Shown here piece by piece: positions 491-35,250 of a stretch of 64,000 bases of DNA (position 1 is its first letter; each line of letters begins with the position of its first letter). Location of the stretch: assembly GCF_963921235.1 (NCBI RefSeq), contig NC_086097.1, forward strand, positions 40,798,001 through 40,862,000, read 5' to 3'. The translations under genes were made by a program, and so were the position numbers. A model generated the notes under the pieces. That model ran no database searches. It saw only the letters and a list, made by a program, of their open reading frames with translations, and was not told the origin of the DNA. The stretch is from Mobula hypostoma (taxonomy: Eukaryota).

Positions 491-1544
491 GCTTACTTTG
501 TATAGTTTTTGAAATAGCTGTGCACATTATAAAGGCTTTTAGCATACACTTTCTTTACGTGACTTGCACATTATTCTCAGGGTCAGTTCCATGTTACAAG
601 AGTTTCCAGTGCAAATTTTGATGGCCAGCAGTAAAATATTGTTTAGATATATACTTATGTATGAATCTTATGAGTAAGGTTCAGTGATGGATTTCAGACA
701 AACATAGTGGCCCAAAAAATATAATAATATTATTGGCCCAAAAAATAAATATTGAATGTTGAAAAACAGTTCACTAATTTGTAATCGTTTGCTTAAAGTG
801 TATTGCTAAACAGTGGCATTTTTGGCTTCACATCAGAGGCTATAAGCTCTGCAAGTGTGAGCACAAAGTTTCTGCTGGTAAGCCAGCGTCAGGACTGAGA
901 GAAAACAGAAGGGGCATGTGATCTGGGAAGGTTCCAGGTAACATTCCCAACTGAAAGCTCTCAATTGCGGAGGTGATCTGTTCCCTCCTTCAGAGGAAAG
1001 GCTTCTCTTGGCTGATGGAAATCGCCAGTTTTCACTGGGAAGCTGACAGTGCTGGGATGGGTGTCTCCGTCTCTCCCTGGAATTCTAACTGGAGCAAGCT
1101 GCCCCGTGTTGAGGCTGAGAGACAGGTACTGCTGCACTGTGTCAGCACAATGACATCACTGGATTTCTGTCTCTGTGGCTCACTCGCGACTGGCACCAGC
1201 ACAAACTACAGTGGATGCTAAAAATCTGAAAAGCAAACCGTAATTGCAAGGGGGAATGCCGTGAAGGTCAGGCAGTGATCCTGGGCAGTTAAACATTTGG
1301 TGCACTCACTCCACTGGGAATTCTGTTGCTGCATCAGAGCACTGGCGATGAACTACAGCAAATCATTGATACTGAAATAGAATTTTCATGTCTACAACAA
1401 AGCATTGGTTCAGATTGTGTGGGTTGTGATTGGCCTTTCAAAGTGTTGTTTCTAAAAGGTTTAGATTTGATTCAATATAACCTTCTTTCAACACTAAGAC
1501 CCTGTAACCCTGGCAGGGTCTTCAATGCCCTCACATGTTTACGT

Positions 1545-1805
1545 GTCTATGGAGTAGGCCCTTCCAGCCCTTTGAGCCGCGCCACCCAGCAGCCCCTGAT
1601 TTAACCCTAGCCTAATCATGAGACAATTTTCAATGACTAATTACCCTACCAATCTGTACGTCTTCAGACTGTGGGAGGAGACCGGAGCACCCGGAGGAAA
1701 CCCACGCGGTCACGGGGAGAACATGCAAACTCCTTAGGGGCAGCAGGGGGAGTTGAATCCAGGTTGCCCGCACTGCAAAGCCTTATGCTAGCCACTATGC
1801 TACGA
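1545..1805 (-). mobile_element. V-SINE (HE1-like tRNA-derived SINE)
   Basis: Reverse complement gives a tRNA-like head followed by the V-domain GGAGTTTGCATGTTCTCCCCGTGACCGCGTGGGTTTCCTCCGGGTGCTCCGGTCTCCTCCCACA. Confidence 0.85.
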
Positions 1806-2407
1806 TGGGGATTAAAGATCCTCATAATCTCCTTAAACAGTTATCACCGTCAAGGGATTGTTAAATATAATCATAATAGTTAAGTGAATGACATGATATT
1901 TTTACAGAATGCGGGCATGGTGAGTGCAACCCTGTGTGGAAAGTGAATTCAGAGAAGAGTTTTATTTACTTTACCTTAACAAATAGTTAAAACTCTTTAA
2001 GGTGGTAGTTCTATTGAAAATAGAGGTATTATTAAACCCGTTTATGGAGAAATTATTAAAATCTATTACATTTTGCGTATCGGATTCTGAAAGCCCTTGA
2101 GCGCATCAGGGTGCTCATTCGCTGGGCTTCAGTATGCAATGCTCATTCTCTGCTAGCAGGTGAGGTGAGATGGGGTGGTGGTCAGTATGTCTGGCCCTAT
2201 CCATCAGATAAAAGCAATGCTCAGACAGGAAAGGACATGAGGAAACAGGATGGTGTTGGAATAGTGAATAGGTATAGATAGGTTTTTAATATAAATGGGA
2301 GAATAATTTGGTGAGATCACAAAAGCAAGCTACAAGAAAGTATGAAAAACTAAGACAAAATGAAAAAAAAACAACTGAAAACAATATTTTGGATGAATTA
2401 AACTCAT

Positions 2408-2659
2408 GCTGGTGGCGCAGTGACATCAGTGCCGGACTCCGGAGCGAAGGTTCCCGAGTTCGAATCCAGCAGGGCCGCTCCCGGGCATGCTTTCCATCTG
2501 TGCCGGGTTGAGTGTTGAGCTCGCAACTCAGCCTCGTAAAATAAAAAACTGCGCTGTGAGAGGGATGTGGGGGACCACTAACAGAATCTTTCCTCCAAGA
2601 CAAGCACTTGAAAAAAGTGGTCGCTGAGGCTCTGGCAGAGTATGGCACACAAAAAAAAA
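2408..2659 (+). mobile_element. tRNA-derived SINE with poly(A) tail
   Basis: A-box-like TGGCGCAGTGA and B-box GTTCGAATCC. Core GCTTTCCATCTGTGCCGGGTTGAG is shared with copies at 53152 and 60314. A-run at 2651-2659. Confidence 0.8.
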
Positions 2660-3959
2660 GAGGAAGGAGGAAGTAGTTGTGCTTTTAAAAACAATCCATG
2701 CCTGATTATGTTTTGTTTGCAATATGCTGTCGTTGGAAAGAAAAGTCTGATAGAGACCCAAAAGGTCACGTTTCACTCAGTTACCTGAATGCTGAAATTG
2801 AAAGTGACACTGAAATTGAATCAGTATTGCGCCAGTAAAATAGTTAAGGATAAGCTTCTTCTCCTGGTGACATGTGCAGTTGAAATGATAAATCTGAAAT
2901 CCTGATAGCACCACTTAGAGGTTATGATTCACCTCAGAAAGCATTGGGAGCAGATTCTTTATCATGGGAATTCTTCTGTTGGCACCATGAAAGTTTCTCT
3001 TTGACTCCATGCCATTCCTCTGCATGAGAGAAAGCAGAGGCCTCAAGAAAGGCTGACAAAAATACAATAACTATTTGCATTTTATTTTATTAACCTGTAC
3101 TGATACAGTACAGATTTGTATATTTGTACTCCCACATCTCATTGCTCCTTGACCCCAGTTAAATAATTAAGATTAATTCATATTGAAATCGGATTCCTCA
3201 GAATAACCTGCAGGGAAATGTGTGTTAACAGTGAAACGGTCATTCTGCAACTTGATTGATGTTTGTTGGGAGCTTGTTACCTTCTTTCTGGGGATTGATT
3301 CTTCTTACTCAAGCCTGACCACCCAGTGTGCACCTGTCAGTCTGCAGATTTCCAACCTGTGTTTTAAATCATTAATGTAAATCAACAAATGTTGTAGTCG
3401 CAGCAGTCGTCCTTGTGAAATCCTGCGTTTTGCCCTTAGCCTGCTGAATAGTTCCCCTTTCTTTTTTTCCAGCAAAACCTTCTGGAACACGTGCTCAAAC
3501 TCTGCATACGCTGATCTTGTCCTTTTGATTATTGCAGGGTACAATATCACAAGCCCTTTGAAAATCTGCATATATCATATCCCCACCACTCTAATATTCT
3601 CTTGGCTATCTTGTCTTAGAATTTAATGAGGAGAGTAAAGCATGACATTCTCTTTTGAAACCTGTGCTGTCAAATAATTTTTGATGTTCAGTTAGTAAGG
3701 ATGATATATTTTTCCAATAGCCATGTTCAACCTGACTGACCGAACAGTTCAATCTTGGCTTCCAACCAGTTGTTTCACTGCCTAGAACTGCACTTGTATA
3801 GTACTTTTTTTCCAGTAAAAAATGATTTTGTGTAGAAATGAAGTTTAATTCCAATGGTTCTTAGGTCAAATAGTGCCATTCCAGAAATCCAGCTGAGCAC
3901 TTGTCATGAAATCGATCTACTTAGACCACAGTTGGAGAAAGTGAGCCCGTGTAGTTTTA

Positions 3960-28361: not shown

Positions 28362-30083
28362 ACATAGAAAATAGTTGCAGGAGTAGGCCATTCGGCCCTT
28401 CGAGCCTGCACCACCATTCAGTATGATCATGGCTGATCATCCAACTCAGAACCCTGTACCAGCCTTCCCTCCATACCCCCTGATCCCTTTAGCCACAAGG
28501 GCCATATCTAACTCCCTCTTAAATATAGCCAATGAGCTGGCCTCAACTGTTTCCTGTGGCAGAGAATTCCACAGATTCACCACTCTCTGTGTGAAGAAGT
28601 TTTTCCTAATCTCGGTCCTAAAAGGCTTCCCCTTTATCCTCAAACTGTGACCCCTCGTTCTGGACTTCCCCAACATCGGGAACAATCTTCCTGCATCTAG
28701 CCTGTCCGATCCCTTTAGGATTTTATACGTTTCAATCAGATTCCCCCCTCAATCTTCTAAATTCCAAAGAGTATAAGCCTAGTTGATCCAGTCTTTCATC
28801 ATATGAAAGTCCTGCCATCCCAGGAATCAATCTGGTGAACCTTCTTTGTATTCCCTCTATGGCAAGGATGTCTTTCCTCAGATTAGGGGACCAAAACTGC
28901 ACACAATACTCCAGGTGTGGTCTCACCAAGGCCTTGTACAACTGCAGTAGTACCTCCCTGCTCCTGTACTCGAATCCTCTTGCTATGAATGCCAGCATAC
29001 CATTCGCCTTTTTCACCACCTGCTGTACCTGCATGCCCACTTTCAATGACTGGTGTATAATGACACCCAGGTCTCGTTGCACCTCCCCTTTTCCTAATTG
29101 GCCACCATTCAGATAATAATCTGTTTTCCTGTTGTTGCCACCAAAGTGGATAACCTCACATTTATCCACATTAAATTGCATCTGCCATGAATTTGCCCAC
29201 TCATCTAACCTATCCAAGTCACCCTGCATCCTCTTAGCATCCTCCTCACAGCTAACACTGCCGCCCAGCTTCGTGTCATCCGCAAACTTGGAGATGCTGC
29301 ATTTAATTCCCTCATCTAAGTCATTAATATATATTGTAAACAACTGGGGTTCCAGCACTGAGCCTTGCGGTACCCCACTAGTCACTGCCTGCCATTCTGA
29401 AAAGGTCCCGTTTATTCCCACTCTTTGCTTCCTGTCTGCCAACCAATTCTCTATCCACATCAATATCTTACCCCCAATACCGTGTGCTTTAAGTTTGCAC
29501 ACTAATCTCCTGTGTGGGACCTTGTCAAAAGTCTTTTGAAAATCCAAATATACCACATCCACCGGTTCTCCCCTATTCACTCTACTAGTTACATCCTCAA
29601 AAAATTCTATGAGATTCGTCAGACATGAGTTTCCTTTCACAAATCCATGCTGACTTTGTCCAACGATTTCACCGCTTTCCAAATGCGCTGTTATCACATC
29701 TTTGATAACTGACTCTAGCATTTTCCCCACCACTGATGTTAGGCTAACCGGTCTATCATTTCTCTCTCCCTCCTTTTTTAAAAAGTGGGGTTACATTAGC
29801 CACCCTCCACTCCTCAGGAACTAGTCCAGAATCTAAAGAGTTTTGAAAAATTATCACTAATGCATCCACTATTTCTTGGGTACTTCCTTAAGCACTCTGG
29901 GATGCAGACCATCTGGCCCTGGGGATTTATCTGCCTTTAATCCCTTCAATTTACCTAACACCACTTCCCTACTAACATGTATTTGCCTCAGTTCCTCCAT
30001 CTCACTGGACGCTCTATCCTCTACTATTTTCGGAAGATTATTTATGTCCTCCTTAGTGAAGACAGAACCAAAGTAGTTATTCA
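28360..30083 (-). mobile_element. CR1 LINE, 3' (non-inverted) segment: RT and 3' UTR
   Basis: ORFs 29869..30084, 28732..29733 and 28446..28685. Highly similar to 17458-19180. Confidence 0.95.
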
Positions 30084-31653
30084 TTGGGACCTCTTTTGGC
30101 GCAGGTATGACCTGTACAAAAAGGACGGGTTACACTTGAATCCTAGGGGGACCAATATCCTGATGGGGAGATTTGCGAGGGCTACTGGGGTGACTTTAAA
30201 CTAGAGTGGTTGGAGGGTGGGAATCAAAGTAAAGAGACTAGGAGAGAGGAGGTTAGTTCACAACAGGGTGATGGGAACAAGTGCAGAGAGACAGAAGGGT
30301 GTAAAATGAGGGTAGAAGCTAAAAGTAGTAAGGTGGAAAGTAAAAGTGGCAGGCTGGCAAATCCAGGGCAAAGATCAAAAAGGGCCACTTTTCAACATAA
30401 TTGTATAAGGGCTAAGAGTGTCATAAAAGTGAGCCTCGAGGCTTTGTGTGTCAATGCAAGGAGCATTCGTAACAAGGTGGATGAATTAAAAGTGCAGATT
30501 GTTATTAATGAATATGATATAGTTGGGATCACAGAGACATGGCTCCAGGGTGACCAAGGATGTGAGCTCAACATTCAGGGATATTCAATATTCAAGAGGG
30601 ATAGACATGAAAGGAAAGAAGGTGGGGTAGCATTGCTGGTAAGAGAGGAGATTAACGCAATAGAAAGGAAGGACATTAGTTGGGAGGATGTGGAATCGAT
30701 ATGGGTAGAGCTGCATAACACTAAGGGGCAGAAAACGCTGGTGGGAGCTGTGTACAGGCCACCTAACAGTAGTAGTGAGGTTGGGGATGGTATTAAACAG
30801 GAAATTAGAAATGCGTGCAATAAAGCAACAGCAGTTATAATGGGTGGCTTCAATCTACATATAGATTGGGTGAACCAAATTGGTAAGGGTGCTGAGGAAG
30901 AGGATTTCTTGGAATGTATGCGGGATGGTTTTTTGAACCAACATGTCAAGGAACCAACTAGAGAGCAGGCTATTCTAGACTGGGTATTGAGCAATGAGGA
31001 AGGGTTAATTAGCAATCTTGTTGTGAGAGGCCCCTTGGGTAAGAGTGACCATAATATGGTGGAATTCTTCATTAAGATAGAGAGTGACATAGTTAATTCA
31101 GAAACAAAGGTTCTGAACTTAAAGAAGGGTAACTTTGAAGGTATGAGACATGAATTAGCTAAGATAGACTGACAAATGACACTTAAAGGGTTGACGGTGG
31201 ATATGCAATGGCAGGCATTTAAAGATCGCATGGATGAACTATTAAGAATTGTTCATCCCAGTTTGGCAAAAGAATAAATCAGGGAAGGTAGTGCACCCGT
31301 GGCTGACAAGGGAAATTAGGGATAGTTTCCATTCCAAAGAAGAAGCATACAAATTAGCCAGAAAAAGTGGCTCACCTGAGGACTGGGAGAAATTCAGAGT
31401 CCAGCAGAGGAGGAGAAAGGGCTTAATTAGGAAAGGGAAAAAAGATTATGAGAGAAAACTGGCAGGGAACATAAAAACTGACTGTAACAACTTTTATAGA
31501 TATGTGAAAAGAAAAACATTGGTTAAGACAAATGTAGGTCCCCTACAGACAGAAACAAGTGAATTGATTATGGGGAGCAAGGACATGGTAGACCAATTGA
31601 ATAACTACTTTGGTTCTGTCTTCACTAAGGAGGACATAAATAATCTTCCAGAA
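30081..31653 (+). mobile_element. CR1 LINE, inverted 5' segment: ORF1 esterase C-terminus, ORF1/ORF2 junction and endonuclease
   Basis: HWDLFWRRYDLYKKDGLHLNPRG..TLN*, then ORF 30210..31172 (NARSIRNK, ITETWL, YRPP, SDHN) and 31249 onward to [11 protein letters not shown]. Confidence 0.95.
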
Positions 31654-32689: not shown

Positions 32690-35250
32690 CATAAGACTAT
32701 AAGATATAGGAGCAGAAGTAGGCCATTTGACCCATCGAGTCTGCTCCGCCAGTCTATCATGGGCTGATCCAATTCTTCCAGTCATTCCCACTCCCCTGCC
32801 TTCACGTAATACACCTTGACTAATCAAGAACCTATCCATCTTTGCGTTAAATACACCCAATGACTTGACCTCCACAGTCGCTCATAACAACAAGTTCCAC
32901 AGATTTACCCCCCTCTGAATGAAGTAATTTCTCTACATCTCAGTTCTAAATGGACGTCCTCAATCCTGAAGCTGTGCCCTCTTGTCCTGGAATCCCCTAT
33001 CATGGGAAGTAACTTCGCCATATCTAATCTGTTCAGGCCTTTTAACATTCAGAATGTTTCTATGAGAGCCTTCCTCATTCTCCTTAACTCCAGGGAATAC
33101 AGCCCAAGAGCTGCCAGATGTTCCTCATACAGTAACCCTTTCACTCCTGGAATCATTCTTGTGAATCTTCTCTGAACCCTCTCCAATGTCAGTATATCCT
33201 TTCTAAAATAAGGAGCTCAAAACTGCACACAATACTTCAAGTATGGTCTCACGAGTGCCTTATGCAGCCTCAACATCACATCCCTGCTCTTATATTCAAT
33301 ATCTCTAGAAATGAATGCCAACATTGCATTCGCCTTCTTCACAACCGACTCAACCTGGAGGTTAACCTTTAGGCTATCTTGCACAAGGACATCCAAGCCC
33401 CTTTGCATATCTGCGTTTTGAATTCTCCCCCCATCTAAATAAGTCTGCCCGTTTATTTCTTCCACCAAAGTGCATGACCATACACTTTCCAACATTGTAT
33501 TTCATTTGCCTCTTCTTTGCCCATCCCCCCCAAACTATCTAAGTCTCTCTGCAGGCTCTCTGTTTCCTCAACTCAACCCACTCCTCCACCTATCTTTGTA
33601 TCATCGGCAAATTTAGCCACAAATCCAGTAATCCCATAGTCCAAATCATTGACATACATCGTAAAAAGCAGCAGTCCTCAACACTGACCCCTGTGGAACT
33701 CCACTGGTAACCGGCAGCCTTACAGAATAGGATCCCTTTATTCCCACTCTCATTTTCTGCCGACCAGCCAATGCTCCACCCATGCTAGTTCCCTGAAGCT
33801 TCACTTCCCTGAAACTCTTGAATGTCCGGTATACTGCAGATGTCTAACGCTGTAAAGACAGATGCAAAATACATATTTAGTTCATCTGCCATCTCTGCAT
33901 CTCTCATTACAATGTCTCCAGCGTCATTTTATATTGGTCCTATATCTACCCTCAACACTCTTTTACCCTTTATATACTTAAAAAATCTTTTAGTATCTTC
34001 TTTGATATTTGTCACCAGTTCCTTTCATAATTCATCTTTTCCTTCCTAATGACTTTCTTATTTTCCTTCTGCAAGTTTTTGAAAGCTTCCCAATCCTTTA
34101 TCTTCCCACTAACTCTGGCTTCCTTGTATGCCCTCTCTTTTGCTTTTACTTTGGCTCTGACTTCACCTGTCAGCCTTGGTAGTGTCCTTCTTCCATTCGA
34201 AAATTTTTATTTGGAATATATCTGTCTTGCACTTCCCTCATTTTTTGCAGAAATTCCAGCTATTGCTGCTCTGCTGTCCTTCCTGCTAGTGTCCCTTTCC
34301 AGTCAACTTTGGCCAGTTCCCCTCTCATGCCATTGTAATTTCCTTTGTTCCACTGAAATACTGGGTTCCAGGTTCTATATAACTGAAGATTTCAAATATA
34401 GAATAGACATACAGGGGAATTTATTTAGCCAGAGGGTGGTGAATCTGTGGAATTCATTGCCACAGGCAGCTGTAGAGGCCAAGTCATTGGGTATATTTAA
34501 AGCGGAACTTGGTAAGTTCTTGATCAGTAAGGGTGTTAAAGGTTATGGGAGAAGACAAGCAAATGGAGTTGAGAGGGAAAATAAATCAGCCATGATTGAA
34601 TGGTAGAGCAGACTCAATGGTTTGAAGATCATAATTCTCCTGTTATGTCTTATGGTTTTATGGTCTAGTGGTGCAAGAATAGCATAAAATAATTATTCAG
34701 TTCATCCACCATTTCTATGTTCACCATTACTCCTCTCCAATGTCTTTTTCCAGTGGTCTGATGTCCGCTCTTGCCTCTCTTTTGCTCTTCATGTATCTGA
34801 AAAGCTTTTAGTATCCTCTTTTATATTCTTCATTAGCTTATCTTCATGTTTCATCTTTTCTCTCGTTATTGCTTTTATAGGTGCCTACTGTTAGTTTTTT
34901 AAAGATTCCCAATCCTGCTAATTTTTGCTATATTTTATGCCCTCTCTTTGTTTTTATACTGTCCATGACTTCCATTGCCAGCCATGGGTGCCTCATCCTC
35001 CCTTTAGAATGATTCCTCTTCTTTGGGATGAACTCATCCTGTATCTTCCGAATTACTCCCAGAAACTTCAGCAATTGCTGCTCTATCATTATCCAAGATA
35101 GTGTCCTCTTCCAACCAATGTTGGCCGCTCCACACTGTGCACCTTTAGTTAGCTTTACTCAACTATAGTACAGATACATCCATGTTTAGCTTTTCCCTCT
35201 CAAACTGCAAGGTGAACCCTGTCATAGTATGATGACTACCTCCTAAAGAC
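32690..35250 (-). mobile_element. Mosaic of CR1 fragments (- strand) containing a + strand CR1 3' end at ~34410-34665
   Basis: ORF 33217..33495 contains [24 protein letters not shown] remnant at ~33690. + strand ORF end GNLFSQRVVNLWNSLPQ. Confidence 0.8.

Follow-up and report, generated by a model that had tools for sequence, protein, structure and literature searches.

A phased U_UUA_AAC slippery heptamer at the ORF1/ORF2 junction of CR1-type retrotransposons in a ray genome: a candidate signal for programmed -1 frameshifting

How is the second protein of a long interspersed nuclear element (LINE) made when both of its open reading frames (ORFs) share one RNA? The translation of ORF2 from a bicistronic LINE RNA is a long-standing question, and the cases that have been studied, human L1 and silkworm SART1, point to reinitiation according to an excerpt of PMC2881922. 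A CR1-type element of the ray Mobula hypostoma makes this question testable. It lies in a stretch of 64,000 nucleotides (nt) (assembly GCF_963921235.1, contig NC_086097.1, positions 40,798,001 to 40,862,000, forward strand), which is called the window here and to which the coordinates refer. The initial annotation of this DNA had claimed a coronavirus-type slippery site at the ORF1/ORF2 junction and proposed that an esterase-endonuclease-reverse transcriptase fusion is made by -1 frameshifting. Our in silico tests came out in favor of this proposal. We put the probability that programmed -1 frameshifting gives an ORF1-ORF2 fusion in these elements at about 0.7, with the slippage itself predicted from the sequence.

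Full-length relatives of the window copy have a 311-residue ORF1 with CxxC motifs, a coiled-coil-like stretch and an SGNH/GDSL esterase (Lipase_GDSL_2, E 5e-17 on the 311-residue ORF1 of a sister copy). With a teleost homologue as the query, the PDB entry 4c1b, the esterase of zebrafish ZfL2-1 ORF1p, was matched at E 1.7e-27, and the nearest database protein to the family ORF1 comes from a ray (87% identity). The domain matches describe an esterase-type ORF1 followed by an ORF2 with an apurinic-type endonuclease and then a reverse transcriptase. The name CR1 rests on the earlier reading and on the description of CR1/L2 esterase ORF1s in PMC13343379. CR1-group elements are described in that source as the dominant retrotransposon in most vertebrates.

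Positions 30193-30204 of the window read ACT TTA AAC TAG in the frame of ORF 29959..30204, and the sequence and the ORF coordinates together confirm that T_TTA_AAC at 30195-30201 stands in the X_XXY_YYZ phase needed for slippage. The -1 frame (TTT AAA CTA GAG TGG TTG ...) is that of the stop-to-stop ORF 30147..31172, which encodes an endonuclease (Pfam Exo_endo_phos_2, E 5.8e-9; Exo_endo_phos, E 1.7e-7; 30306-31172). The claim that ORF2 is in the -1 frame and stays open to 31172 through the endonuclease is thereby borne out by the ORF listing and by Pfam. The G-rich tract said to start 6 nt past the heptamer is also present, with GG at 30208-30209 and GGAGGGTGGG at 30212-30221 (10 nt on), as is the in-frame ATG at 30306 of the window copy. 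The 35-nt junction string occurs once in the window, against 0 expected, and by our own estimate a phased X_XXY_YYZ heptamer would fall within the 16-nt overlap by chance in about 1-2% of cases. The case for more than chance is built on conservation across diverged families and vertebrates rather than on these window statistics.

The family of the window copy (family A) is very abundant in the 3.48-Gb genome. The first search gave 2922 candidates, and the exact junction pattern was found in 4290 family A copies and in 0 with the reversed control. Of 30 family copies, 28 have the heptamer unaltered, and the ATG equivalent to 30306 is likewise present in 28/30. Such agreement among copies that are about 95% alike was rejected as evidence of selection, because the site is inherited by descent. 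More distant lineages were therefore sought in the genome with the 38%-identical ORF1 of another ray, and their junctions were fetched.

Three further families (B, C, and D) were recovered, and the ORF1 proteins of A, B, C, and D are only about 40-60% alike. Compared with the Hemitrygon protein P0050 over the full ORF1, family D is 55-64% identical, and intact copies including those of subfamily A2, B, and C are 40-46% identical. Divergence is also clear in an alignment of the C-terminal 100 codons of ORF1 from A/A2, B, C, and D. All four families nevertheless have NNT TTA AAC, a TAR stop, 9-10 nt and GGGGGNTGGG (Table 1), and the same junction was seen in 10 of 10 extra family C copies. Over this stretch, A2, B, C, and D share one residue in 28 columns where synonymous codons exist, and 9 of these keep one codon. 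Among the 10 invariant Leu columns, 9 vary synonymously and only the terminal one is fixed (TTA in all four); the terminal Asn is AAC in all four, whereas the other invariant Asn column varies between AAT and AAC. The codon before Leu-Asn is ACT, GAT, GGT or GCT, so that T, D, G or A is encoded with T at the wobble position every time. Judged on these codons, the pattern is the one expected from a nucleotide-level constraint on N NNU UUA AAC, and not from a peptide motif. The heptamer is thus frozen at its synonymous positions in four diverged families, a point that the initial annotation had singled out for checking.

Families A and B have unlike ORF1 termini (TEVTLN and VQEDLN) and a near-identical ORF2 start (copies L061, L065, and L068 compared with L063). 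The point at which they switch is the G tract, where A is longer by about 60 nt and has the tract a second time; in B this second tract stands directly past the heptamer, and the approximately 60 nt between the two tracts of A are absent. This looks like a modular exchange of ORF1 at the junction. No change in T-run length was found among the 100 junctions listed of the 4290 in family A, indicating that the fusion is not made by an in-frame DNA variant. Four sets of contigs, of RNA or DNA origin, were also compared at the A2 junction. The listed rows have no stop or heptamer variants and contain several variants in adjacent ORF1 codons; nothing was inferred from this on expression or selection.

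The junction is mirrored in the ORF1 termini of other vertebrates. Leu-Asn (LN) terminates 54 of the 60 ORF1 homologues in which esterase block V lies no more than 45 residues from the end. An exhaustive profile search of 1.84 billion cluster representatives was also made. Its best 150 matches included 142 new ones, and 98 had block V 20-45 residues from the end; these 98 representatives end in LN (43), GN (10, namely 9 QGN and 1 SGN) or SKN (1), and the rest are diverse, with EN in two of them. Named LN-ended clusters come from a snake, two turtles, Anolis, Varanus, a swallow and a poison frog, so the expected reach to amniotes is found at the protein level in squamates, turtles and a bird. 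Other LN-ended matches are from Xenopus, Hyla, Leptobrachium, Latimeria, the mormyrid teleost Paramormyrops, and many sharks and rays, and the ORF1 of the chimaera Callorhinchus (P0083) ends in LNY. In all of 98 LN-ended proteins the stop comes straight after Asn, and the residue before LN takes 14 different values. Only one of the 98 has K, E, Q, M or W there, the residues without a U-ending codon, and these five account for 48% of residues at position -4 and 41% at position -5. The QGN and SKN termini, for their part, fit G_GGA_AAC and A_AAA_AAC heptamers directly before the stop, as far as protein termini can indicate. Three more representatives end in FFR, one in FFH and one in FFN, which would fit U-rich slippery heptamers.

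These observations can be joined in one proposed mechanism. Most ribosomes would decode ...U UUA AAC, terminate at the adjacent UAG or UAA, and release ORF1p with its coiled coil and SGNH esterase. A minority would slip back by one base on U_UUA_AAC, with the Leu and Asn tRNAs re-pairing on UUU and AAA, and would continue in the ORF2 frame, giving an ORF1p-linker-endonuclease-reverse transcriptase fusion whose junction in the window family would read ...TLN-LEWLGGGN.... This would be a Gag-Pol-like means of keeping the ORF2:ORF1 ratio low and of tying the enzyme to an ORF1p multimer on its own RNA. The adjacent stop and the GGGGGNUGGG tract 9-10 nt downstream may tune the efficiency, and the G tract could act as a G-quadruplex or as a factor-binding site. 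Frameshifting would account for the phased heptamer, its synonymous conservation, the restriction to NNU before it, the alternative heptamer-like termini, the -1 frame that opens at the heptamer and the missing AUG. Anatomy, frame relations and conservation were observed directly, whereas the slippage, how efficient it is and what the G tract does are inferred from them.

The frame relation was the same in all families, another point that the initial annotation had set for checking. In 4/4 families ORF2 occupies the -1 frame, which opens at the heptamer or shortly ahead of it. In A2, C, and D this frame is closed 1-2 codons ahead of the heptamer; in B it extends 12-50 codons upstream without a stop. 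From the heptamer to the endonuclease motif or beyond it is open in 6 of 11 copies, with at least one each in A2, B, and C; the other five (three decayed family D copies, L067 and, by its translation, L068) have a stop in that stretch. Across the same 60-83 codons, 3-10 stops were counted in the other two frames.

A conserved start codon for ORF2 was not found at any fixed place past the heptamer. The first Met of the ORF2 frame is at codon 3 in B, 15 in D, 37 in A, and 38 in C. Subfamily A2, the youngest lineage sampled (at least 40 copies that are 98-100% alike), has GTG in place of the ATG equivalent to 30306 in 16/16 copies. It lacks a Met for at least 108 codons, and 12 of 14 newly fetched copies are open over that stretch. 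The next Met of the A2 frame comes only at codon 164-181, inside the endonuclease. In the one A2 copy that was read further, 823 codons are open from the heptamer through the endonuclease and most of the reverse transcriptase, and Met first appears at codon 181, past the N-terminal motifs of the endonuclease. A conserved ORF2 AUG, which the initial annotation had counted as refuting its proposal, is thus absent, as seen in the variation of the Met position by family and in the GTG of A2. A restart AUG at the stop itself is not conserved either: the ORF1 stop overlaps an ORF2-frame ATG (TAATG, UAAUG in RNA) in 3/3 family B copies (L061, L065, and L068) and in no other family.

The alternative that survives best is termination-dependent reinitiation without any frameshift. 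In that case the 40S subunit would be kept on the RNA, perhaps by the G tract, until it meets an AUG or near-cognate codon in the ORF2 frame and restarts there, a mechanism proposed for human L1 and silkworm SART1, and ORF2p would be a separate protein. We consider this unlikely, and it has several points in its favor. In bicistronic LINE RNAs, including those of SART1 and human L1, ORF2 synthesis is described as dependent on ORF1 translation and as proceeding by reinitiation, and the UAAUG stop-start motif is named for the translational coupling of SART1 (PMC2881922, in excerpt). The G tract of A, B, and C contains UGGGA and that of D contains UGGGU, located 3' of the stop and separated from the first AUG by 21 to about 90 nt; counted by hand, an AUG follows 29 nt after UGGGA in A and B and 21 nt after UGGGU in D. 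UGGGA recalls the 18S-binding motif 1 of the calicivirus reinitiation signals known as termination upstream ribosome-binding sites (TURBS). In the known TURBS cases the motif is upstream of the stop, unlike UGGGA here, which is downstream.

The following observations weigh against frameshifting, several of them by favoring reinitiation. An in-frame AUG, or GUG in A2, is present past the stop in every family, and the AUG of the UAAUG in all three family B copies is in the ORF2 frame. Reinitiation in L1 and caliciviruses is said to tolerate non-AUG codons, and human L1 ORF2 translation reportedly tolerates loss of its AUG, in work attributed to Alisch and co-workers in 2006, so a missing AUG alone does not exclude reinitiation. 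Folding of nested structures predicted no hairpin or pseudoknot that could drive frameshifting. For the 96 nt that follow the stop, the fold is no more stable than that of shuffled sequences in 5/5 cases (z +0.22 to +1.15), and the minimum free energy over the first 42-77 nt is only -1.2 to -3.6 kcal/mol in B, C, D, and a 42-nt piece of the window; over 77 nt it is -9.6 kcal/mol for A2 and -5.7 kcal/mol for the window copy. With quadruplexes allowed in ViennaRNA, a two-tier G-quadruplex (GGnnGGnGGnnGG) is predicted 6 nt past the heptamer in A, A2, B, and C, and the prediction fails in D, so that it holds in 3/4 families and with two tiers only. The conservation of the G tract could also partly reflect a Gly-rich peptide, although its core GGGGGNTGGG is common to 4/4 families and the GGGGGNUGGG core of family D sits in a different codon phase from that of A-C, which argues for an RNA-level over a peptide-level constraint on the tract. 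Moreover, the LN terminus is not universal, since ORF1s with a DGLHP-type block V and several other groups end differently. The nucleotide-level evidence comes from one genome, and the other vertebrates are represented by protein termini.

Against reinitiation, there is no reason in it for a phased X_XXY_YYZ heptamer that is frozen at synonymous sites. It also leaves unexplained the avoidance of K, E, Q, M, and W before Leu-Asn (97/98) and the fact that the QGN and SKN termini spell slippery heptamers as well. The restart codon would have to shift between families (3, 15, 37, 38) and be a non-AUG codon in the youngest subfamily, and the ORF2 frame is open back to the heptamer in 6/11 copies while the other frames are full of stops. 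Frameshifting and reinitiation could also coexist.

A second alternative is that the ORF1 terminus, together with the G tract, serves another function, as a C-terminal peptide motif of ORF1p or as an element for RNA packaging or ORF1p binding, with a coincidental likeness to a slippery site and with ORF2 expressed by internal entry or from a separate transcript. The terminal L and N are invariant in a 19-sequence alignment, as a protein motif could give, and in 30 of the 43 LN-ended representatives the end lies at one and the same distance, 26 residues, from block V. A protein motif, however, would permit CTN or TTG and AAT, and nine other Leu columns vary where the terminal one does not. It would also leave the wobble base of the variable preceding residue unconstrained, and the constant -1 frame of ORF2 that opens exactly at the heptamer would be unexplained. 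We regard this alternative as very improbable. That the junction is a chance feature of one decayed copy with no meaning beyond the window is hardly credible: the copy is truncated, inverted and broken and has private changes at 30185, 30206, and 30214, but the same junction occurs in the 4290 family copies and in three other families, and it is mirrored in ORF1 termini across jawed vertebrates.

If programmed -1 frameshifting is the correct reading, a close formal parallel is the coronavirus ORF1a/1b junction, which has the identical heptamer in the same phase, a downstream polymerase-type ORF in the -1 frame without a conserved start, and a downstream element that begins 6-10 nt past the heptamer. 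Unlike coronaviruses, CR1 has no predicted pseudoknot or hairpin, as judged from nested folds, and has a conserved G-rich tract; its zero-frame stop abuts the heptamer in every family, and its carrier is a nuclear LINE and not an RNA virus. Among unusual stimulators of -1 frameshifting are the arterivirus C-rich motif, which is bound by a protein complex, and engineered G-quadruplexes. CR1 resembles these systems in having a short linear tract about 10 nt past the shift site instead of a hairpin. The CR1 tract is only a candidate for factor binding or quadruplex formation, unlike those stimulators, and family D has no predicted quadruplex. Stimulators located 12-15 nt downstream on the 3' side and acting with trans-acting factors are described in an excerpt of PMC5009743.

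The expression strategy proposed for CR1 is also similar to that of Gag-Pol in retroviruses and long terminal repeat (LTR) elements, in which an abundant RNA-associated first protein is accompanied by a scarce polymerase fused to it through a classical heptamer. LTR elements with pol in the -1 frame have been surveyed (PMC5009743, in excerpt). The CR1 ORF1 differs from Gag in being a coiled-coil/esterase protein, there is no protease to release the enzyme, and CR1 is a non-LTR retrotransposon that uses target-primed reverse transcription. Compared with SART1 and human L1, which lack a phased slippery heptamer, CR1 has the heptamer in 4/4 families and UAAUG in one, and its ORF2 never leaves the -1 frame, which is open starting at the heptamer.

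The idea of a -1 frameshift already exists for LINEs. In the Dictyostelium elements TRE5-A and TRE3-A, 'a -1 frameshift' is stated in part of PMC5911963 to be required for ORF2 translation. They too are LINEs with an apurinic-type endonuclease; they belong to a different LINE clade and host, and were compared by description only, the statement naming neither a slippery site nor a stimulator and giving no conservation analysis. The recoding review PMC5009743, in the part available, lists LTR elements, HeT-A gag, TART and mammalian LINEs, and no CR1 ORF1/ORF2 frameshift among them. Our literature search turned up no account of a slippery site where ORF1 meets ORF2 in CR1 or L2, with the original chicken, turtle and fugu CR1 papers lying outside the search and a prior mention possible there. 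The term 'frameshift' is absent from the CR1/ORF1 papers PMC13343379, PMC4120745, and PMC3905857.

A wider claim can be made only tentatively, at somewhat less than even odds: all jawed-vertebrate CR1s would make an ORF1p-ORF2p fusion by a -1 shift, with U_UUA_AAC as its site or, in sister lineages, G_GGA_AAC or A_AAA_AAC, driven by a 'shifty stop' and a G tract and not by a pseudoknot, with the tract forming an RNA G-quadruplex or binding a host or ORF1 protein. If so, this would be a natural non-canonical frameshift stimulator about 450 million years old, an age estimated from the taxa, and a Gag-Pol strategy in LINEs. The enzyme that copied a large part of vertebrate DNA would then have been made via frameshifting and fused to ORF1p, and the cis-preference and low dose of ORF2p would be explained in one step. 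For recoding research, it would be a cellular -1 signal of eukaryotes that is deeply conserved, lacks a hairpin and has an adjacent stop and a G tract. The junction is short and portable into reporter assays.

The same junction was also detected in another genus through annotated proteins. Two Hypanus sabinus gene models (P0271 and P0034, named 'hydroxyacid oxidase 2 isoform X1' and 'uncharacterized protein') consist of a CR1 ORF1 read into ORF2. They read ...GG-FKL... across the junction into the endonuclease (...LNARSVRNK...), and FKL is the -1-frame translation of TTTAAACTN, which places the junction in that genus. A search for longer fused proteins found four, one of them an ORF1-endonuclease read-through model. 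Such fused gene models were not accepted as a natural in-frame lineage, because gene predictors favor long open frames, and the in-frame reading in Hypanus was treated as an effect of annotation or of a 1-nt T-run indel. For annotation it matters that gene models reading through the junction are currently filed as host genes. Two other database entries are vertebrate CR1 ORF1s, most likely from host DNA contaminating the assemblies: P0022 ('Pseudomonas aeruginosa SGNH/GDSL hydrolase', on a 4.2-kb contig) is 56% identical to a ray ORF1, and P0059 (a 'Protopolystoma xenopodis' protein) is 54% identical to a Xenopus ORF1.

Related DNA from other sources, that of QGN-type elements included, was also sought. 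Members of the QGN/SGN/SKN class are on ENA contigs (P0131, P0137, P0138, P0141-P0143, P0153, P0190, P0192, P0220, and P0163). The M. hypostoma genome gave no QGN family: identity to P0138 was 32-39% among the best matches, and each of the 10 regions fetched belonged to family C. Metagenome contigs searched with the ORF1 alignment gave 5 loci at 26-28% identity, too distant to be informative; those with a readable complete ORF1 have another C-terminus and no heptamer, and one locus (L073) is broken by a stop inside the esterase. Only 2 bacterial hydrolases were matched in a genome contig collection, and viral contigs searched with the QGN-class alignment gave no match.

In the window copy itself, 30081-31653 on the forward strand aligns to element positions 1497-3068 of copy L019 at 95%, and on the reverse strand 30087 to 29689 aligns to element positions 3008-3416 at 92.7% and continues beyond. 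The two opposite-strand segments overlap by 61 nt of the element (3008 to 3068), and by these alignments the CR1 insertion at 28446-31653 is laid out like a twin-priming 5' inversion with a 61-nt duplicated overlap. The reverse-strand part matches RVT_1 (E 3.4e-30, 28732-29790), and its ORFs reach down to 28446. Only the last 41 codons of the family ORF1 are present, and the upstream part of the 81-codon 'ORF1' of the window is a chance read-through opposite a reverse-transcriptase fragment. ORF1 does end at the heptamer and stop as stated, and the 5' inversion left only this 3' stump of it. Family similarity runs on past the ORF2-breaking stop (31172) to 31653. A private A>G substitution at 30185 leaves the -1 frame open upstream to 30147; in 28 of the 29 other family copies examined, a TGA closes this frame two codons ahead of the heptamer; the two further private changes near the site are also substitutions. 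On this layout the window copy, 5'-inverted, truncated and broken, is a dead relic that merely preserves the family signal.

Table 1. Features of the CR1 copy in the window and ORF1/ORF2 junctions of the four families of the genome.
Feature	Position	Strand	Remarks
ORF1 3' end, C-terminus of SGNH/GDSL esterase domain (...DGLHLNPRGTNILMGRFARATGVTLN, then stop)	30081..30204	+	cut at 30081 by 5' inversion
Slippery heptamer T_TTA_AAC (U_UUA_AAC), X_XXY_YYZ phase of ORF1	30195..30201	+	
ORF1 stop TAG	30202..30204	+	abuts heptamer; TAA in families B, C, D
ORF2 frame, -1 relative to ORF1	30195..31172	+	heptamer through apurinic-type endonuclease; stop at 31170-31172
G-rich tract GGTTGGAGGGTGGG (family majority GGTTGGGGGGTGGG)	30208..30221	+	candidate non-canonical stimulator
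Second G tract GGGTGATGGG (family majority GGGGGATGGG)	30266..30275	+	
First ATG of ORF2 frame	30306..30308	+	37 codons past heptamer
Direct 3' segment of same insertion, ORF2 reverse-transcriptase part and C-terminus	28446..30087	-	begins at element position 3008
Family A / A2 junction (window family): GTG ACT TTA AAC TAG AATGGTT GGGGGGTGGG			
Family B junction: GAA GAT TTA AAC TAA TGTGGCA GGGGGATGGG			then ORF2 of family A
Family C junction: GAG GGT TTA AAC TAA TTTGGCA GGGGGATGGG			ORF2 N-terminus differs
Family D junction: AGG GCT TTA AAC TAA ATAGTA GGGGGGTGGG			old, decayed; column majority of 30 copies

The window is also strewn with 5'-truncated CR1-type 3' ends. LINE ORF2 C-terminal motifs (...NLWNSLPQ..., ...KALVRP.LEYCVQFW...) are found in ORF fragments at 28446-28748 on the reverse strand, 33217-33501 on the reverse strand and 34031-34606 on the forward strand.

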